In this document: piece by piece, positions 22,610-34,826 of the stretch
Layout of the letters: each line of letters opens with the position of its first letter
Numbering within the stretch: the first letter of the stretch is position 1
IMG/VR virus record: IMGVR_UViG_2877251553_000002
Strand: one strand, 5' to 3'
Length of the DNA stretch: 34,826 bases
DNA from: a virus
Lineage: Duplodnaviria; Heunggongvirae; Uroviricota; Caudoviricetes
Translations under genes and position numbers: made by a program
Notes under the pieces: generated by a model
The model's database searches: none
Told to the model about the DNA's origin: nothing
The model's input: the letters and a program-made list of their open reading frames with translations, nothing else

Positions 22610-23677
<1,068 letters not shown>

Positions 23678-24194: not shown

Positions 24195-24269
<75 letters not shown>

Positions 24270-24272
24270 ATA

Positions 24273-24348
<76 letters not shown>

Positions 24349-24350
24349 GC

Positions 24351-24427
24351 TGGCCCACCACCGAGGACTCGAACCTCGCACCGTCAACTTAGAAGGTTGA
24401 TGCTCTATCCGGATGAGCTAGTGGTGG
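24351..24427 (-). tRNA. tRNA-Arg (anticodon UCU)
   Basis: Reverse complement CCACCACTAGCTCATCCGGATAGAGCATCAACCTTCTAAGTTGACGGTGCGAGGTTCGAGTCCTCGGTGGTGGGCCA; 7-bp acceptor stem, anticodon loop CTTCTAA. Confidence 0.75.
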
Positions 24428-24428
24428 T

Positions 24429-24505
24429 TGGTGGCCCTTGCTGGACTTGAACCAGCGACCTGGCGATTATGAGTCGCTCGCTCTGACCAACTGAGCTAAA
24501 GGGCC
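24429..24505 (-). tRNA. tRNA with CAU anticodon (tRNA-Ile2-like, or Met)
   Basis: Reverse complement GGCCCTTTAGCTCAGTTGGTCAGAGCGAGCGACTCATAATCGCCAGGTCGCTGGTTCAAGTCCAGCAAGGGCCACCA; resembles ileX-type tRNA. Confidence 0.8.
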
Positions 24506-24585: not shown

Positions 24586-25886
<1,301 letters not shown>

Positions 25887-26224
25887 CTGATAAAAGCGCC
25901 CTGTACTGGTTAGCAATAGCAAATTTACTACCAGCTGCTCTGATTTCAAGAAAGCTGTACACCTCCCTTATGCCTATATTTTTAACCGGAACACCACCAA
26001 AGTATTCACTTATGATTTTCAACCTCTGGTTGTGTCTTTTCATGGTGTTTGTGCTTAATTGTCTACGCTCTATTTCATTTCTGAAATTTAATATCAGCTC
26101 GCAGAATAATGTTACGCTATTACCTTTTATTCTATCCAGTAAGCTTATATGTTGCGTGGATAATAATTCCATATTTGCCGCAATAGCCTCATTAACTGCA
26201 ATTCTTTTGTCTCTTCCGATTCCA
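25887..26224 (-). pseudogene. lambda-family integrase, internal N-proximal fragment
   Basis: Reads ...GIGRDKRIAVNEAIAANMELL...NSVTL...AIANQYRALLS up to the IS911 junction, colinear with lambda Int residues ~36-160; 5' end replaced by an IS1 terminus at 26225. Confidence 0.8.
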
Positions 26225-26352
26225 GGTGATGACTCCAACTTACTGATAGTGTTTTATGTTCAGATAATGCCCGATGACCTTGTCATGCAGCTCCACCGAT
26301 TTTGAGAACGACAGTGACTTCCGTCCCAGCCTTGCCAGATGTTGTCTCAGAG
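26225..26352 (-). mobile_element. IS1 terminal fragment (~128 bp)
   Basis: GGTGATGACTCCAACTTACTGATAGTGTTTTATGTTCAGATAATGCCCGATGAC... matches the IS1 end at 4461-4590, then is cut by the ISEc8-like terminus at 26353. Confidence 0.8.
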
Positions 26353-26388
26353 TAAGCGTGCAGCAAGAACCGTATTGACGGGGATGTG

Positions 26389-27927
26389 TTATTCAGTCGG
26401 CAGTGCTACGCGCCAGGGGAGCAGTTCGCCGACCCGGTTTATCGGCCAGTCGGCTATGACGTCAAGTACATAGCGGAGGTAGCTTTCTGGCTCCACTCCG
26501 TTCAGTTTGCACGTCCCGATCAGGCTGTACAGCAGCGCTCCCCGCTCTCCTCCATGATCCGAACCGAAGAACAGGTAGTTTTTGCGGCCCAGACTGACCA
26601 TCCGCAACGCATTTTCAGCGATGTTATTGTCCGCCTCAGCCCAGCCATCATCTGCATAGTACGTCAGCGCCGGCCACTGGTTCAGGGCGTATGCGAACGC
26701 TTTCGCCAGTTCTGAGTGTCGCGACAGGGTTTTCATCTTTTCACGCAGCCAGCTTTCCAGGGATTTCAGCAGCGGTTTCGTTTTCAACTGACGTTCGGCA
26801 AGGCGCTGCTCCGCCGTCATTCCCCTTATCTCTGCCTCGATGGCGTACAGTTCGCCGATCCGTTTCAGCGCTTCCTCCGTCAGGGCTGACGGGGTGCGAA
26901 CGTGCACATCGTGGATTTTACGGCGGGCGTGAGCCCAACAGGCGGCTTCCGTTATCCGGCCATCCCGGTACAGCTCGTTGAACCCGGCGTATGCATCCGC
27001 CTGCAGTACACCACTGAACCCCGCAAGATGGGTCTGCGGATGGATGCCTTTTCTGTCCGGGCTGTAAGCGAACCACACCGCCGGCGCCAGCGTTGACCCG
27101 GCGTTACGGTCGTCACGAACGTAGGTCCATAACCGCCCGGTCTTCGTTTTCTTATTGCCTGGCAACAGCACCGGGACAGGCGTGTCATCAGCATGGAGCT
27201 TACCGTCAGTCAGCACATAGTCCTGAAGCGCTTCTTCCAGCGGTGACAGTAGCCGGCAGCATGCATCCACCCAGCCCGACAGCAGTGAACGACTCAGCTC
27301 CACGCCCTGGCGGCCGTACATTTCAGACTGGCGGTACAGCGGGGTGTGCTCTGCATACTTTGAGATCAGCACGCGGGCCAGCAGCCCCGGTCCTGCGATA
27401 CCCCGCTCGATGGGCCGTGAAGGCGCGGGGGCCTGCACGATGGCATCGCACTGAGTACAGGCATGCTTTTCACGTACAGTCCGGATAACCCGGAAGACGC
27501 TGCGCATCAACTCCAGCTGTTCGGCGGCATCCTCACCCGGATAGCTCAGTGAGCCTCCACATTCCGGGCAGCATGACGCTGCCGGCAGCAGCCGTTTTTC
27601 ATCGCGGGGGAGTGATTCGGGGAACGGTTTGCGGGTGCGGGTTTGACGCAGCGGGCGCTGCACGGCCGGGTCGTCAACCCGACCGGTAAGGGTATCACTT
27701 TCTTTCTGAAGTGCCTTCAGGTCAGCTTCCATCTGTGCGATACGACGGGAGACTTTTTCGGAGCGGCTGCCGAAGTTCATCCGGCGCAGCTTATCCAGCT
27801 GTGCCTGCAGATGGTCTATTTCGCGTTCACGCTCGTTCAGCTTTTCCAGCAGGGCACGGTTCAGCGCCTCCTGTTCGGCAAGGAGACGTTTCAGTGCATT
27901 GATATCGTCAGGAAGTGAGCTGCTCAT
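26389..27927 (-). CDS. IS66-family transposase TnpC, intact (512 aa)
   Basis: Single uninterrupted ORF; the only intact TnpC among the three copies. Confidence 0.85.
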
Positions 27928-27975
27928 ACCGGGTATATTACCAGGCTCATTCAGCGTCGACCAGGATAAAGAGGC

Positions 27976-28323
27976 TTACAACATAGTCAGGGACGTAAGC
28001 AGTCTTTTAGGCTGCCGCCAGTCGATACCTTCAAGGAGCATCGCCAGCTGTGCCGGTGTGAGGAACACTTTGCCATCCCGGGCTGACGGCCAGGCGAAGC
28101 GGCCGCGCTCCAGCCGTTTGGTCAGCAGACACAGTCCATCGCCGGTAGACCAGAGGAGCTTTACCTGACTGCCATTACGCCCACGGAAGATAAAAACGTG
28201 ACCTGACATCGGATCGTCTTTCAGCGTCGTCTGCACCTTTGCCGCCAGGCCGTTGAAGCCATTTCTCATATCGGTGATACCGGCAACCAGCCAAATTTTG
28301 GTCCCGGAAGGTAACGGGATCAT
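27976..28323 (-). CDS. IS66-family TnpB (orf2)
   Basis: 115-aa ORF identical to copy 1. Confidence 0.85.
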   Translation of the reverse strand: MIPLPSGTKIWLVAGITDMRNGFNGLAAKVQTTLKDDPMSGHVFIFRGRNGSQVKLLWSTGDGLCLLTKRLERGRFAWPSARDGKVFLTPAQLAMLLEGIDWRQPKRLLTSLTML

Positions 28324-28721
28324 CGCTTCAGTTCCTGTATCAGCAGAGTCAGGAGCTTTTCGCTGACATTGCCATTGAAGCGGAGCGTCCCGTGCCGGAA
28401 CGTTACCTCACAGCTGATACTGAGGGTTTCCGGATCCTCTGCGAGCGATTCTGGCTGTTCGGCAGCTGCATCGAGAGTCACAGGAAGTAGCTGGGGGCTA
28501 TCTGAAGAAGGTAATAGCAGCTTTCCCTCGCGCCATTGTTGTCGCCATTTGAACAACAGATTGGCGTTAATGCCATTTTCAAGAGCAAGTTTTGAGATGG
28601 ATATCCCGGGTTCACAGGAGGCAGCAACGAGCTGCTGTTTAAATTCGGGAGGATAATTAGGGCAGCCTTTTCGCCTGCCGGGATTCACATTTTTCTGCAT
28701 ATCTGACACTTTGGTTCCCAC
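28320..28721 (-). CDS. IS66-family TnpA (orf1)
   Basis: 133-aa ORF; alternative start at 28700. Confidence 0.8.
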   Translation of the reverse strand: MGTKVSDMQKNVNPGRRKGCPNYPPEFKQQLVAASCEPGISISKLALENGINANLLFKWRQQWREGKLLLPSSDSPQLLPVTLDAAAEQPESLAEDPETLSISCEVTFRHGTLRFNGNVSEKLLTLLIQELKR

Positions 28722-28818
28722 TACTTATTTGGTGGACACCACTTTGTCTAATTCGTCAGATTCTGACCAGACGGTTCAGGCTGTACGCTTACGTTTTTAT
28801 AATCCGGCCATGACATTT

Positions 28819-29178
28819 TTACAACATTGTCAGTGCGTTAAGGCGGGATGTTTTTGGCTGACGCCAGTCCAGCTTATCGAGGAGCATTGCCAGTTGCGAG
28901 CGGGTAATGGATACCTTGCCGTCACGCACAGCAGGCCAGATAAACTGGCCTTCCTCCAGGCGTCTGGTGAACAGGCACAGACCATCAGCATCAGCCCACA
29001 GGATTTTAATCATGTCACCCCGTCGGCCACGGAAGATGAACAGGTGACCGGAGAAGGGATTATCATTCAGCACATGCTGTACCTGTTCACCCAGCCCGTT
29101 GAAAGACTTACGCATATCGGTTATCCCAGCAACGAGCCAGATGCGGGTGCCTGACGGGAGTGAGATCATCGTCCCCAC
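28819..29178 (-). CDS. IS66-family TnpB-like protein (divergent)
   Basis: MGTMISLPSGTRIWLVAGITDMRKSFNGL..., roughly 60 percent identical by eye to the ISEc8-like TnpB. Confidence 0.75.
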   Translation of the reverse strand: MGTMISLPSGTRIWLVAGITDMRKSFNGLGEQVQHVLNDNPFSGHLFIFRGRRGDMIKILWADADGLCLFTRRLEEGQFIWPAVRDGKVSITRSQLAMLLDKLDWRQPKTSRLNALTML

Positions 29179-29597
29179 CCGGTCAGTTCACGGATCAACA
29201 CTGTGAGCAGCTCTGGTGAAGGATTTTCCAGCGTCATGTTACCGTGACGGAACTCCACCTTGCAGGAGCTGGCACTAACTGTAGTCTGAGTAGATAAAGA
29301 CGGAGTAAGAGCAGCCACCGGTTCTTTCGGCTCATCCGGCGTTATCTCCACAGGTAATAATTCAACGCCAGTGTCAGAAGAGGTTGTTACCGGAAGACGC
29401 CGCGATATGCGCCCTTCGTTCTGCCAGAGCCTGAGCCATTTGAACAGCAGGTTATCATTGATATCGTGTTCCCGGGCAATACGGGCAACAGAGGCTCCTG
29501 GTTGTGAAGCCAGTTTAACCATTTGAAGTTTAAACTCATTTGAAAATGATCTGCGGGTTCTGCAGATAATGCTTTCTGTTCCATAACAGGTGTCCAC
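29166..29597 (-). CDS. IS66-family TnpA-like protein (divergent); start uncertain
   Basis: Contains the conserved ...DNLLFKWLRLWQNEG... segment of IS66 orf1 proteins. Confidence 0.65.
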   Translation of the reverse strand: MDTCYGTESIICRTRRSFSNEFKLQMVKLASQPGASVARIAREHDINDNLLFKWLRLWQNEGRISRRLPVTTSSDTGVELLPVEITPDEPKEPVAALTPSLSTQTTVSASSCKVEFRHGNMTLENPSPELLTVLIRELTGWGR

Positions 29598-29670
29598 TAG
29601 TTGAAAAGGTGGGCACCTACGTTACCAATACAGGCTTAATGGCTACATACGGCGGTCAGTTTACGCTTAC

Positions 29671-29944
29671 CAAAATACGCTGTTGCTTTTTTTAATATAT
29701 ATCGCTCAAGGCGAGCTTCATTTAACGCCTTACGCAGTTGCAGAATTTCAGATTCCAGTTCAGCCACCGTGCGGGAACCAGGAGTACCGAGCCCTTTTCT
29801 GGCGGCGGTAACCCATTGTCCTAAAGTGCCTTCAGGAAGGGATAATCGGGAAGCGCCTTCACTGATCGAAAGTTGATTTTCAAGAACCGTTCTGACAGCT
29901 TCGGCTTTGAACTCTTTAGAGTAACGTTGGTTTTTTCTGCTCAT
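29671..29944 (-). pseudogene. IS3-family OrfA, 3' truncated
   Basis: First ~91 codons of an IS600-like OrfA; ORF tail at 29636-29670 is IS66-derived. Confidence 0.6.
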
Positions 29945-30067: not shown

Positions 30068-30613
30068 TTATTTTAAGGAAAGCAACTGCTCTACGGTCAT
30101 GTTTTTAATTGCGCCCCGGTTTACAAGAGTCCAGCCCTGTTTTTCCAGATAAAACCGGAAAGTCTCCAGGGTACAGACCAGTGCGCCATCAGGAACGGTT
30201 TCGGTGAATTCGACATTGCCGAATTTGTCGAAGTGAACAACCAGAGTGCGACCATCACCCGGAATCATCTTGTCAGCAGGTGGGGTGTTATTCTGGCGCA
30301 GTTCGGCCTCCATGCGGTCGAACTCAGCAATGTAGGCTTCCTTGAATGTGGCGGCTTTTTTGCCCGTGAAGCCCATCACCAGGAAAACGAAGCCGTTTTT
30401 GGTGATTTGGTAGGCGTTATAAGAATTGCCGCGGTGTTCGAATTTAACCCGCGAAAAGTTGCTGGTTAAAAATAGTTCAGAACATTCGAGGGATTCTATT
30501 TTTTGAACAACATGGTGATGCTGCTTGCCAAAAAACTCAGCAATCGAAATAGAAGTAGTGACGGCGCGACCATTTTCGATGGTTACGTCAGGGTGAGAAA
30601 GGGTAGTAGCCAT
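30068..30613 (-). CDS. rha: phage regulatory protein Rha (antirepressor-like)
   Basis: Start ATG at 30613 with GAGGA 7 nt upstream; Rha-family signature ...SISIAEFFGKQHHHVVQKIESL...YQITKNGFVFLVMGFTGKKAATFKEAYIAEFDRMEAEL... Confidence 0.75.
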   Translation of the reverse strand: MATTLSHPDVTIENGRAVTTSISIAEFFGKQHHHVVQKIESLECSELFLTSNFSRVKFEHRGNSYNAYQITKNGFVFLVMGFTGKKAATFKEAYIAEFDRMEAELRQNNTPPADKMIPGDGRTLVVHFDKFGNVEFTETVPDGALVCTLETFRFYLEKQGWTLVNRGAIKNMTVEQLLSLK

Positions 30614-30695
30614 AATGACATCCTCAAGTGATAAGTTAATTAACTCACCAGCAGAGGTGCTAATCTCATGGGTGGTGAGACGCACAGGGTTAGCA

Positions 30696-30908
30696 CTACC
30701 GGTCACTCGAGAACCCGGCCAGCCTTGCGGCTGCCCCGCACGCCTCACCATAATTTGAATGTGGCTGTGCATTACGCATAAAAAAAACCGCTTCAGCGCG
30801 GTTATGCGCTCGAGTAACTTTCGGGGTGCTAATCCCGGCGCCCGTTTTATGAGGTGCAGGTGCATTATAATTCCACCCGTTCTGGTTTTCAATAGCTACA
30901 TTCAACAT
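30696..30908 (-). CDS. hypothetical 70-aa ORF with good ribosome site but an intrinsic terminator inside it
   Basis: AGGAAAGAG upstream of ATG at 30908; hairpin plus T8 at 30780-30803 lies mid-ORF, so coding status is doubtful. Confidence 0.2.
   Translation of the reverse strand: MLNVAIENQNGWNYNAPAPHKTGAGISTPKVTRAHNRAEAVFFMRNAQPHSNYGEACGAAARLAGFSSDR
30780..30803 (-). terminator. rho-independent terminator, minus strand, upstream of rha
   Basis: ACCGC-GCTGAA-GCGGT hairpin followed by 8 T on the minus strand, embedded in a longer palindrome CGCATAA...TTATGCG. Confidence 0.5.
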
Positions 30909-31329: not shown

Positions 31330-31482
31330 TTAGCTGGTATTTTTGGCAAGCCAGCGACGTGCGCCAGCTTCGGTTTTAAACGTTTTGCTTTTGGTATACG
31401 TCATGGCGGTGAATGTGCCGTCCTGATTGGGAAACACGCCACACACTAGGGATTCGTTGTTGCCAAGATCGATAGTATCCAT
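31330..31482 (-). CDS. small protein (50 aa), YdfA-like
   Basis: ATG with GAGG 8 nt upstream; MDTIDLGNNESLVCGVFPNQDGTFTAMTYTKSKTFKTEAGARRWLAKNTS; first ORF downstream of the repressor gene. Confidence 0.5.
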   Translation of the reverse strand: MDTIDLGNNESLVCGVFPNQDGTFTAMTYTKSKTFKTEAGARRWLAKNTS

Positions 31483-31682
31483 GCTGACCTCATTTCCCTT
31501 AACGCCGGGTAGCGGAACTGTTTGCTGAGAACACCGTGCGGTGTCTTGATGAATGAAATTTAGAATAACCTAAGGTGTTGGGTTAAGATTTTATGTAGAA
31601 AAACCTAAGTTTTTTTGATGTAAAAAACACAAGTGTTTGAAAGTTTGTGCTTTTTATTACAGGGTGTGGAGAAAAAAGGGGA

Positions 31683-32089
31683 TTATTTGTTTGCGCTTCT
31701 TTTGCGAGCTTTGAGTAGTTCTTCAAAAAGTTTGTTGAAATTTTCAACTCGAGCACGCATCTCTGACAACAGGGCCTTTTGCTCTGACTCAGGCAGTGCG
31801 TCGAACAGTTGAAGTAACTCTTTTTGATCTTCTGTCAGAATGGCTGGCTGATTATCCGGGATCGGTTCGCCTGGTTGTTTATCTTCATCCCAAAAAGAAG
31901 CCAAGTCGGTGAGCACTGAAGCGCTTGGCTCAGTGCGAATAATCTTTTCCCCGCCGGCTGTGTTTCATCTCTTTCCCATTGAGAAATTGTTACGTGAGCC
32001 ACTTTGACCAGCTTACCTAATGCGGCCTGAGACAGTTTTAATTTTTTACGCCTATGTAAGAGGCGAGCACCGAAGGTTTCGTTTTTCAT
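31683..32089 (-). pseudogene. dicA: DicA-like HTH (XRE/cI-type) repressor, frameshifted
   Basis: ORFs 31835-32089 (HTH: ...LSQAALGKLVKVAHVTISQWERDETQPAGKRLFALSQALQCSPTWLLFG) and 31683-31916 (...LPESEQKALLSEMRARVENFNKLFEELLKARKR) overlap in different frames and together resemble DicA. Confidence 0.7.
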
Positions 32090-32165
32090 ATTAGGGAATT
32101 CTAATTTTTCTTGACTTAGGTTTCTCTACGAGCTAGTTTCCTTAGGAAAATCTAAGGAGCTCGAT
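32090..32165. promoter_or_regulatory. divergent promoter/operator region between repressor and cro-like genes
   Basis: TTGACTTAGGTTTCTCT and palindrome-like CCTTAGGAAAATCTAAGG; similar CCTAAG/CTTAGG motifs recur at 31560-31640. Confidence 0.4.
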
Positions 32166-32373
32166 ATGTTGAAAATTGATGCTATAGCGTTTTTTGGCAG
32201 CAAAACAAAGCATTGCCAATGCCGCAGGAGTTAGGCTGGCAAGCATTGCTGCATGGGGGGAACTGGTTCCTGAAGGTCGCGCGATGCGCCTGCAAGAGGC
32301 ATCTGGCGGGGAACTTCAGTACGACCCAAAGTTTATGACGAATATCGTAAGGCAAAACGACCTGGGAAGGTGA
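32166..32373 (+). pseudogene. dicC: DicC-like Cro-type regulator, frameshifted
   Basis: MLKIDAIAFFGSKTK then a 1-bp insertion; the other frame continues IANAAGVRLASIAAWGELVPEGRAMRLQEASGGELQYDPK..., resembling DicC. Confidence 0.65.
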
Positions 32374-32376
32374 TTC

Positions 32377-32798
32377 ATGAAAATCAGGCATGAGCACATC
32401 GAATCAGTGCTGTTAGCCCTGGCAGCCGAAAAAGGGCAGGCGTGGGTCGCTAACGCAATTACTGAAGAATATCTGCGGCAGGGGGCGGCGAATTGCCTCT
32501 GGTACCAGGCAAGGACTGGAACAATCAGCAGAATATCTATCACCGTTGGTTGAAAGGTGAAACGAAAGCGCAAAGGGAAAAAATTCAGAAACTGATCCCT
32601 GCGGTTCTGGCAATTCTTCCGCGTGAGCTGCGTCACCGACTCTGTATCTTCGATACCCTGGAACGCCGTGCATTACTGGCGGCGCAGGAAGCGTTGAGTA
32701 CGGCAATTGATGCGCATGATGACGCAGTTCAGGCCGTTTACCGGAAAGCACATTTCAGCGGTGGTGGGTCGTCCGACGATTCTGTCGTTGTGCATTGA
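32377..32798 (+). pseudogene. YdaT-like protein, frameshifted
   Basis: MKIRHEHIESVLLALAAEKGQAWVANAITEEYLRQG.. then a frame change into ..LPLVPGKDWNNQQNIYHRWLKGETKAQREKIQKLIPAVLAILPRELRHRLCIFDTLERRALLAAQEAL... Confidence 0.65.
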
Positions 32799-32970: not shown

Positions 32971-33042
32971 TGAAGTGGCACACTGAATTTGGCCACCTGA
33001 ACAGAGGTGATATGCTCACCTCAGAACAACACAGGTGCTCCA

Positions 33043-34826
<1,784 letters not shown>

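Follow-up and report, generated by a model that had tools for sequence, protein, structure and literature searches.

The closest described counterpart of the region studied here is the DicA/DicC region of the Qin prophage of Escherichia coli K-12, where the operators Oc, Om and Oa, as well as operators at the dicB promoter, have been reported (Bejar et al. 1988, as cited in PMC10448788; Yun et al. 2012, PMC3441716). We have analysed a related immunity region in IMG/VR virus record IMGVR_UViG_2877251553_000002 (Caudoviricetes; 34,826 nucleotides, the whole of which is hereafter called the window), in which a DicA-like repressor gene is flanked by two intergenic gaps carrying recurrent CCTAAG/CTTAGG strings. 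K-12 Oc is a 20-nt inverted repeat, TTGTTAGTCATAACTAACAA (TTGTTAG-N6-CTAACAA), at which DicA represses dicC and activates dicA. Single-base changes in Oc abolish DicA binding in vivo, Om and Oa were unbound in the same in-vivo assay, and H-NS/Cnu antagonises DicA at Oc (PMC3441716). Chromatin immunoprecipitation sequencing (ChIP-seq) of K-12 DicC located its strongest binding in Qin at its own promoter region, led to one binding site being inferred on either side of dicA, and yielded from the bound regions genome-wide the palindrome TT(A/C/T)G...C(G/A/T)AA (PMC11430063). Ragunathan et al. describe sequence-predicted operators in both intergenic regions of K-12, whose DicA also lacks a cleavage domain (PMC10448788), and Reg-Seq lists a DicA site at dicB with low evidence and unknown location (PMC7567609). 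For the immunity type of the window, no operator data were found in the O157:H7 DicC paper (PMC6915034) or in Reg-Seq (PMC7567609).

According to the original prediction for this DNA, four strings are plausible half-sites at which the DicA-like repressor would act, two near the divergent promoters and two near the promoter of the dicB-type operon. Each string was found exactly where it had been placed, and the placement agreed with the gene map. CCTTAGGAAAATCTAAGG (32140-32157) and TTGACTTAGGTTT (32111-32123) lie inside the 76-bp gap (32090-32165) between the divergent dicA-like and dicC-like genes, and AACCTAAGGTG (31567-31577) and AAACCTAAGTTT (31601-31612) inside the 200-bp gap from the dicA-like stop codon to the ydfA-like open reading frame (ORF). 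A repeat search revealed that the hexamers are parts of mutually similar units of 16-22 nt, which resolve into 16-bp dyads of the form yTTAG-N6-CTAAr. Among the four strings, CCTTAGGAAAATCTAAGG is one whole dyad, while TTGACTTAGGTTT, AACCTAAGGTG and AAACCTAAGTTT are the better half of imperfect dyads; a fifth dyad, ATTAGGGAATTCTAAT (32090-32105), had been overlooked. The strings are not four independent half-sites. The predicted functional unit is a 16-18-bp dyad rather than a hexamer, and there are five dyad-like sites.

We have compared these counts with expectation, both over the window and against a local null in which only the two gaps were shuffled, 20,000 times and with dinucleotide counts preserved. 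On both strands of the window CCTAAG is under-represented (5 copies vs 10.8 expected), and four of the five copies fall within the 276 bp of the two gaps. Shuffles of these AT-rich gaps contained a mean of 0.25 and a maximum of 3 copies, against the 4 observed (P < 5e-5). The longer patterns were more informative: all three window matches to TTAG-N6-CTAA (0.30 expected window-wide) and all four TAG-N6-CTAAG sites (0.47 expected) are in the gaps. When up to two mismatches to CTTAG-N6-CTAAG were allowed, the 276 bp contained five sites where the local expectation was 0.19, a count that none of the local shuffles attained.

Scans with a DicA alignment gave 99 related loci (19 from genomes and 80 from viral contigs), and the repressor gene could be delimited in 85 of them, plus the window. 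The loci were grouped by the helix 2-turn-helix 3 sequence of the repressor, and dyads with at most one mismatch were counted in the two gaps. The half-site class (CTTAG, GTTAG, ATTGA or GTTGA) tracked the helix-turn-helix (HTH) type of the repressor without exception in 85 classifiable loci, across 14 HTH sequence variants and four half-site classes. CTTAG-N6-CTAAG occurred only with ..SQAALGK..VAHVTISQWER repressors (61 loci), at about 2.9 sites per locus and with no dyad of another type. GTTAG-N6-CTAAC was restricted to repressors of the TQR type (those of K-12, E. albertii, Citrobacter and Rahnella; 3-4 sites per locus), and the ATTGA/GTTGA cores to those with ..ISLWES recognition helices (..S[GDY][SA]SISLWES or ISHATISLWES). 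Such covariation is the signature expected of cognate operators.

The original prediction had named loss of the motif from homologous immunity regions as the observation that would speak against it. Instead, the dyads were kept in 61 of the 61 loci sharing the HTH type of the window (..LSQAALGK[LM][VA]KVAHVTISQWER..), while flanks and spacers varied. Relatives whose repressors are 85% (L078), 79% (L080-82) and 69% (L083) identical retain CTTAG/CTAAG although their 6-nt spacers and flanks differ. Variability, calculated as the mean fraction differing from the majority across distinct same-type sequences, was 0.021 for half-site columns, 0.049 for promoter-only columns, 0.062 for spacers and 0.170 for other intergenic columns, a roughly 8-fold lower variability in the half-sites than in the intergenic DNA around them.

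Together, conservation, HTH covariation and the K-12 operator positions supported the assignment of operators for the DicA-like repressor to both the divergent and the dicB-type promoters. We consider it highly likely that the CCTAAG/CTTAGG strings are halves of 16-18-bp dyad operators (CTTAG-N6-CTAAG) for the dimeric, P22 C2-type DicA-like repressor encoded between them. By analogy, the DicC-like Cro protein, whose gene is divergent, very probably binds the same dyads. The region belongs to the known DicA/DicC, P22-like kind of switch, as a heteroimmune member, and is textbook lambdoid in design. The features are collected in Table 1.

Table 1. Predicted operators, promoters and neighbouring features of the immunity region, in window coordinates
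Feature	Position	Strand	Sequence	Description
Oc-like	32141-32156		CTTAGgaaaatCTAAG	perfect dyad, CTTAG-gaaaat-CTAAG
Om-like	32115-32130		CTTAGgtttctCTACG	CTTAG-gtttct-CTACG, one mismatch to the dyad
Oa-like	32090-32105		ATTAGggaattCTAAT	ATTAG-ggaatt-CTAAT, adjoins the dicA-like start codon
OL1-like	31559-31574		TTTAGaataacCTAAG	TTTAG-aataac-CTAAG; minus strand CTTAGgttattCTAAA
OL2-like	31594-31609		TGTAGaaaaacCTAAG	TGTAG-aaaaac-CTAAG; minus strand CTTAGgtttttCTACA
Predicted dicC-like (PR-like) promoter	32111-32139	+		-35 TTGACT (32111-32116), 17-bp spacer, -10 TAGTTT (32134-32139)
Predicted dicB-type (PL-like) promoter	31557-31586	-		-35 TTAACC (31586-31581), 18-bp spacer, -10 TAAATT (31562-31557)
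dicA-like repressor gene	31683-32089	-		two overlapping ORFs in the window
dicC-like gene (P22_Cro family)	32166-32393	+		divergent from the dicA-like gene
ydfA-like ORF (DUF1391)	31330-31482	-		first gene of the putative dicB-type-promoter operon
Terminator-like hairpin and U-run	31621-31656	-		right after the dicA-like stop codon

The locus resembles K-12 Qin (L002 in our set) in gene order (dicC-like, divergent dicA-like, then ydfA), in the 135-aa repressor, in the TTAG-N6-CTAA core and in the terminator after dicA. The three-site layout of the divergent gap is also the same, with Oc right after a TTGACT-17-TAnnTT promoter and at -67 from the dicA ATG; in K-12 this gap reads CAT-AGTTAGCTAATGCTAAAT...TTGACT-17-TATCTT-GTTAGTTATGACTAAC...ATG. 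Two dyads before ydfA, GTTAGtcatggCTAAT and ATGTTAGctatagCATAC, lie 35 bp apart in K-12 as well. The two loci differ in the outer half-site bases (CC/GG in CCTTAG...CTAAGG here vs TG/CA in TGTTAG...CTAACA in K-12), in the start of helix 2 (SQA vs TQR) and in the recognition helix (VAHVTIS vs ISHVSVS). Moreover, a C4/IsrK-like RNA region is present in the window, together with a Rha-family gene, where K-12 has dicF and dicB; both of the latter are absent from the window, and an Rfam scan of it gave no DicF. The repressor and Cro-like genes are frameshifted in the window copy.

In the divergent gap, three dyad-like sequences are spaced 26 and 25 bp apart. The Oc-like site is the sole perfect CTTAG-N6-CTAAG match in the window and extends with its flanks to 18 bp (CCTTAGG...CTAAGG). 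Its offset from the dicA ATG equals that of K-12 Oc. It starts two bases past the dicC-like -10, spans the predicted dicC-like transcript start and overlaps the AAGGAG ribosome-binding site; its halves are retained in relatives though the spacer differs, and they covary with repressor HTH type. The Om-like site, conserved among same-type relatives, fills the -35/-10 spacer of the dicC-like promoter, its left half overlapping the -35 (TTGACTTAG). That promoter is in the same register as K-12 TTGACT-17-TATCTT, and its -10 is TAnnnT in most relatives and TGGTTT in three. The Oa-like site matches TTAG-N6-CTAA; the minus-strand TAGAAT that it contains (32103-32098) might serve as the -10 of a dicA-like transcript without a leader.

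On the ydfA side, the OL1-like site falls in the interval separating the two hexamers of the dicB-type promoter and extends into the -10, and the OL2-like site lies directly upstream of the -35, 35 bp away centre to centre. OL1-like is nearly invariant across 37 distinct same-type sequences, in which the 7-8 bp between it and the -35 are hypervariable; OL2-like is likewise conserved in same-type relatives, as are the promoter hexamers TTGACC and TAAATT. In K-12, GTTAGtcatggCTAAT occupies the position equivalent to OL1-like and overlaps the -10 TAATCT of the dicB promoter, with ATGTTAGctatagCATAC 35 bp upstream. This comparison suggests that DicA/DicC bind the K-12 dicB promoter at GTTAGtcatggCTAAT and ATGTTAGctatagCATAC (L002 2212-2263). 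A K-12 transcript start about 7 nt past TAATCT would bring +813 plus 190 nt to the U-tail of the DicF terminator. As RNase III cuts between positions 813 and 814 to yield the 190-nt DicF (PMC10448788), this placement fits the RNase III/DicF coordinates, provided that the published numbering counts from the transcription start. In the window, a simple sigma-70 scan (at least four of six matches per hexamer) called neither intergenic promoter because the -10 hexamers are weak; both predicted promoters were placed by eye, from the K-12 alignment and conservation.

Several observations weigh against the operator assignment. The failure of K-12 Om and Oa to be bound (PMC3441716) means that the imperfect sites here may be weak, cooperativity-dependent or non-functional. 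Overlap of the Om left half with the -35 TTGACT could alone explain part of its conservation. The Oa-like sequence (ATTAGAATTxCCTAA) is near-identical in the window and E. albertii types despite their differing Oc half-sites; because it does not covary with repressor type, it may be merely the repressor's own -10 (TAGAAT), and its operator status is uncertain. The dicB-type -35 is TTAACC in the window and its nearest relative L034 but TTGACC in nearly all other relatives, a possible promoter-down change in this lineage. With the repressor and Cro-like genes frameshifted, the window's own sites may be orphaned. Finally, the lower variability of half-sites than of spacers and other columns was significant by permutation (P < 1e-5) in a test that ignores phylogenetic non-independence.

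Some of these points could be accounted for if only the Oc-like site, and perhaps OL1-like, were functional, the other CTTAG sequences being remnants or promoter elements (the -35 for Om, the dicA -10 for Oa). The K-12 binding data and the lack of covariation at Oa are what such a view expects, and in E. albertii-type loci Om lacks its left half. The Om-like and OL2-like sites, however, match each other in reverse complement over 16 nt at 94%, the weak CTAC half included, and both are kept in same-type relatives, even those with 79% identity; in addition, cooperative binding escapes single-site assays, as with lambda OR2. We therefore regard this restricted view as possible but rather unlikely.

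The dyads could also be recognised by something other than the DicA-like protein, either DicC alone or a host factor such as H-NS/Cnu, YjdC or IHF. The K-12 DicC ChIP-seq peaks flank dicA and share a TTnG/CnAA motif (PMC11430063), the antagonism between H-NS/Cnu and DicA takes place at Oc itself (PMC3441716), and the region is AT-rich. Nevertheless, a host factor would not produce the covariation of half-sites with the repressor HTH, K-12 Oc binds DicA genetically, and in lambdoid switches Cro and repressor normally use common sites, so that DicC is hardly a rival; this explanation is accordingly improbable. As for chance, or mere relatedness through recent ancestry and duplication of OL from OR without function, the AT-rich intergenic DNA and the overall identity above 92% of most of the 61 same-type loci speak for it, and it is hardly credible given that local shuffles never reached the observed counts, that half-sites are fixed beside hypervariable positions, and that the dyads persist in 69-85% relatives with differing spacers and switch with the repressor type.

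If the five dyads are operators of the DicA-like repressor, the dimeric protein would, judging by dyad quality and the K-12 data, occupy Oc-like and OL1-like first; more speculatively, Om-like and OL2-like, which have the weak CTAC half in common, might be filled cooperatively or at higher concentration. Since the dyads overlap promoter hexamers, occlusion of both the dicC-like and the dicB-type promoters can be inferred: on the right, bound repressor would exclude RNA polymerase from the dicC-like promoter, and on the left it would silence the ydfA operon and the genes beyond. By analogy with K-12 alone, occupancy of Oc and/or Om may stimulate the weak leftward dicA promoter. The Cro-like protein, acting on the same sites, would shut off dicA, as the K-12 ChIP-seq and expression data suggest by analogy. 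The outer half-site C, which is G in K-12 Qin, would give the immunity region its own specificity, and induction would proceed through an antirepressor and not through RecA cleavage, given that the repressor has no cleavage domain.

How that specificity is read can be proposed only tentatively. The E. albertii-type repressors combine the recognition helix of the window with TQR and use GTTAG, which points to reading by helix 2. The single outer base of the half-site, which is C in the window but G in K-12 Qin and in every relative of the TQR type, might then be the heteroimmunity determinant, read by the residue after the conserved Gln that starts helix 2 (SQA vs TQR), and not by the recognition helix, although our confidence in this is low. 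If true, a simple and portable code would govern recognition in the DicA/P22 C2 family, and for operator sets orphaned beside a broken repressor gene, as may be the case here, regulation in trans would be open only to prophages of the same type within that genome.

We have also examined the proteins of the switch through intact orthologues. The DicA-like orthologue (e.g. WP_000787424.1) has 135 aa, its DNA is 97.8% identical to the window region, and it is annotated 'dicA' in prophages of about 45 kb, named PPompW, of Shiga toxin-producing E. coli (STEC). Strain FDAARGOS_943, like PPompW lysogens, is an example of a carrier of an intact copy. It matched Pfam HTH_3 at 7.8e-14, with no Pfam match to Peptidase_S24, the RecA-cleavable domain, in its 135 aa, and it is 62% identical to K-12 DicA. 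Its closest solved structure is the N-terminal domain of P22 C2, operator complexes included (E = 1e-21, residues 2-69), to which it is about 60% identical and which has been solved on operator DNA. These matches place the DicA-like protein among genuine operator-binding repressors. The dicC-like orthologue matched P22_Cro at 3.1e-13; WP_000912291.1 is a Cro-like protein of this type.

The likeness to P22 C2 (PDB 1ADR, 2R1J, 3JXB; 18-bp operators) thus covers the N-terminal domain and the P22_Cro-family partner. In contrast, P22 C2 has 216 aa and a RecA-cleavable C-terminal domain, whereas the window type has 135 aa and no S24 peptidase match; in addition, H stands in place of recognition-helix residue N32, and position 6 of the operator carries G where P22 has A. 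Aligned by their centres with the P22 operator consensus, ATTTAAGATATCTTAAAT, the window operators have T3-T4-A5 and G7 in common with it. With lambda cI/Cro (OR1-3, OL1-3) the locus shares the divergent repressor and cro genes, multiple dyads over PR-like and PL-like promoters, adjacent operators about 25 bp apart and a possibly leaderless repressor mRNA; it differs in having no operator sequence similarity, a PL-like side with just two dyads 35 bp from each other, and a non-cleavable repressor. A further likeness, one of context, is to antirepressor-controlled repressors that are not cleaved in the SOS response (Gifsy phages; Qin DicA and Rem, PMC10448788), namely a short repressor without cleavage domain, and an IsrK/C4-like RNA with a Rha/Ash-family gene in the operon under the OL-like operators.

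The state of the switch genes in the window was assessed against L034, which is 99.6% identical over 1.9 kb with seven differing positions. Five of the seven are 1-nt deletions in G/C homopolymers (31495, 31506, 31888, 32324 and 32480), which frameshift the dicA-like gene (31888, in a C4 run), the dicC-like gene (32324) and a ydaT-like gene. The confinement of the deletions to homopolymer runs suggests sequencing or assembly error over true decay, and the repressor frameshift at 31888 is probably an assembly error. A different case is an additional A at 32212 (GCATTGCC vs GCTTGCC), which truncates the dicC-like ORF after 22 codons. It is also present in independent viral-contig loci (the L028 and L068 sequence types), so that this loss of Cro is probably genuine and specific to the lineage. 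Locus L021, from Shigella flexneri, is a different copy, of the E. albertii type and with many indels.

These assignments provide candidate operators and promoters for a DicA-like immunity type common in E. coli; the region was present at a coverage of at least 80% in 489 of 5,426 complete E. coli genomes, the STEC PPompW prophages included. The comparison also pinpoints the expected DicA-type sites at the dicB promoter, whose location Reg-Seq had left unknown (PMC7567609), and the covariation table offers natural specificity variants for studying how P22 C2-like repressors read DNA.

Between the repressor gene and the OL-like operators lies an A/U-rich hairpin (Table 1) with a minimum free energy of -9.6 kcal/mol (z = -3.7; 0 of 200 shuffles equally stable). 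In two relatives (L078 and L080) its sequence differs and its stem is still self-complementary, as judged by eye. It is likely the terminator of the repressor gene, possibly a bidirectional one given the A-run upstream, and it accounts for the AACACAAGTGTT palindrome beside OL2-like. A third left-hand operator at 31619-31638 (AAAAACACAAGTGTTT) was considered and rejected, since the sequence is out of register (5-nt spacer) and corresponds to the 3' arm of the hairpin.

Downstream, the ydfA-like ORF is about 92% identical in DNA to K-12 ydfA, and its orthologue matched Pfam DUF1391 at 3.5e-28. The ydfA leader (31483-31550, the minus-strand 5' untranslated region) is almost identical across all immunity types, K-12 included. 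Two small hairpins, GACACCGCACGGTGTT and CCCCGGCGTTAAGGGG, were recognised in it by eye, and Citrobacter leaders carry CCCTGGCGATACAGGG, a compensatory variant; the leader may act as an RNA signal, nut-like or of another kind.

Beyond the leader, the Rfam scan detected a C4 antisense RNA (30668-30755, minus strand, 78.6 bits) and an isrK Hfq-binding RNA (30781-30857, minus strand, 63.8 bits), both within the 5' part of a long ORF (30068-30892) in which Phage_ASH and Phage_pRha domains are encoded. This arrangement resembles a P1 immI-like or Gifsy-1 IsrK/AnrP-like secondary immunity/antirepressor module. Apart from C4 and isrK, tRNAs were the only Rfam families in the window: four genes clustered at 24198-24505 (minus strand; 56-70 bits).

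The immunity module is a prophage remnant of about 3 kb bracketed by insertion sequence (IS) elements, which are dense across 24586-29944 and 33007-34826. They include an IS66-family TnpC (26389-27927) and IS3-family OrfA/OrfB (24586-25485, 29636-29944 and from 33007); the element at 33007 interrupts the gene after ydaT, and in ORF 33372-34826 the frame of an rve transposase continues into a fragment of a phage integrase. The 16-mer ATTACAGCGCACTAAG has copies at 23566 and 34108 and an inverted one at 24734, with the tRNA cluster between copies; the copies at 24734 and 34108 adjoin two rve-type (IS3-family) transposase ORFs.

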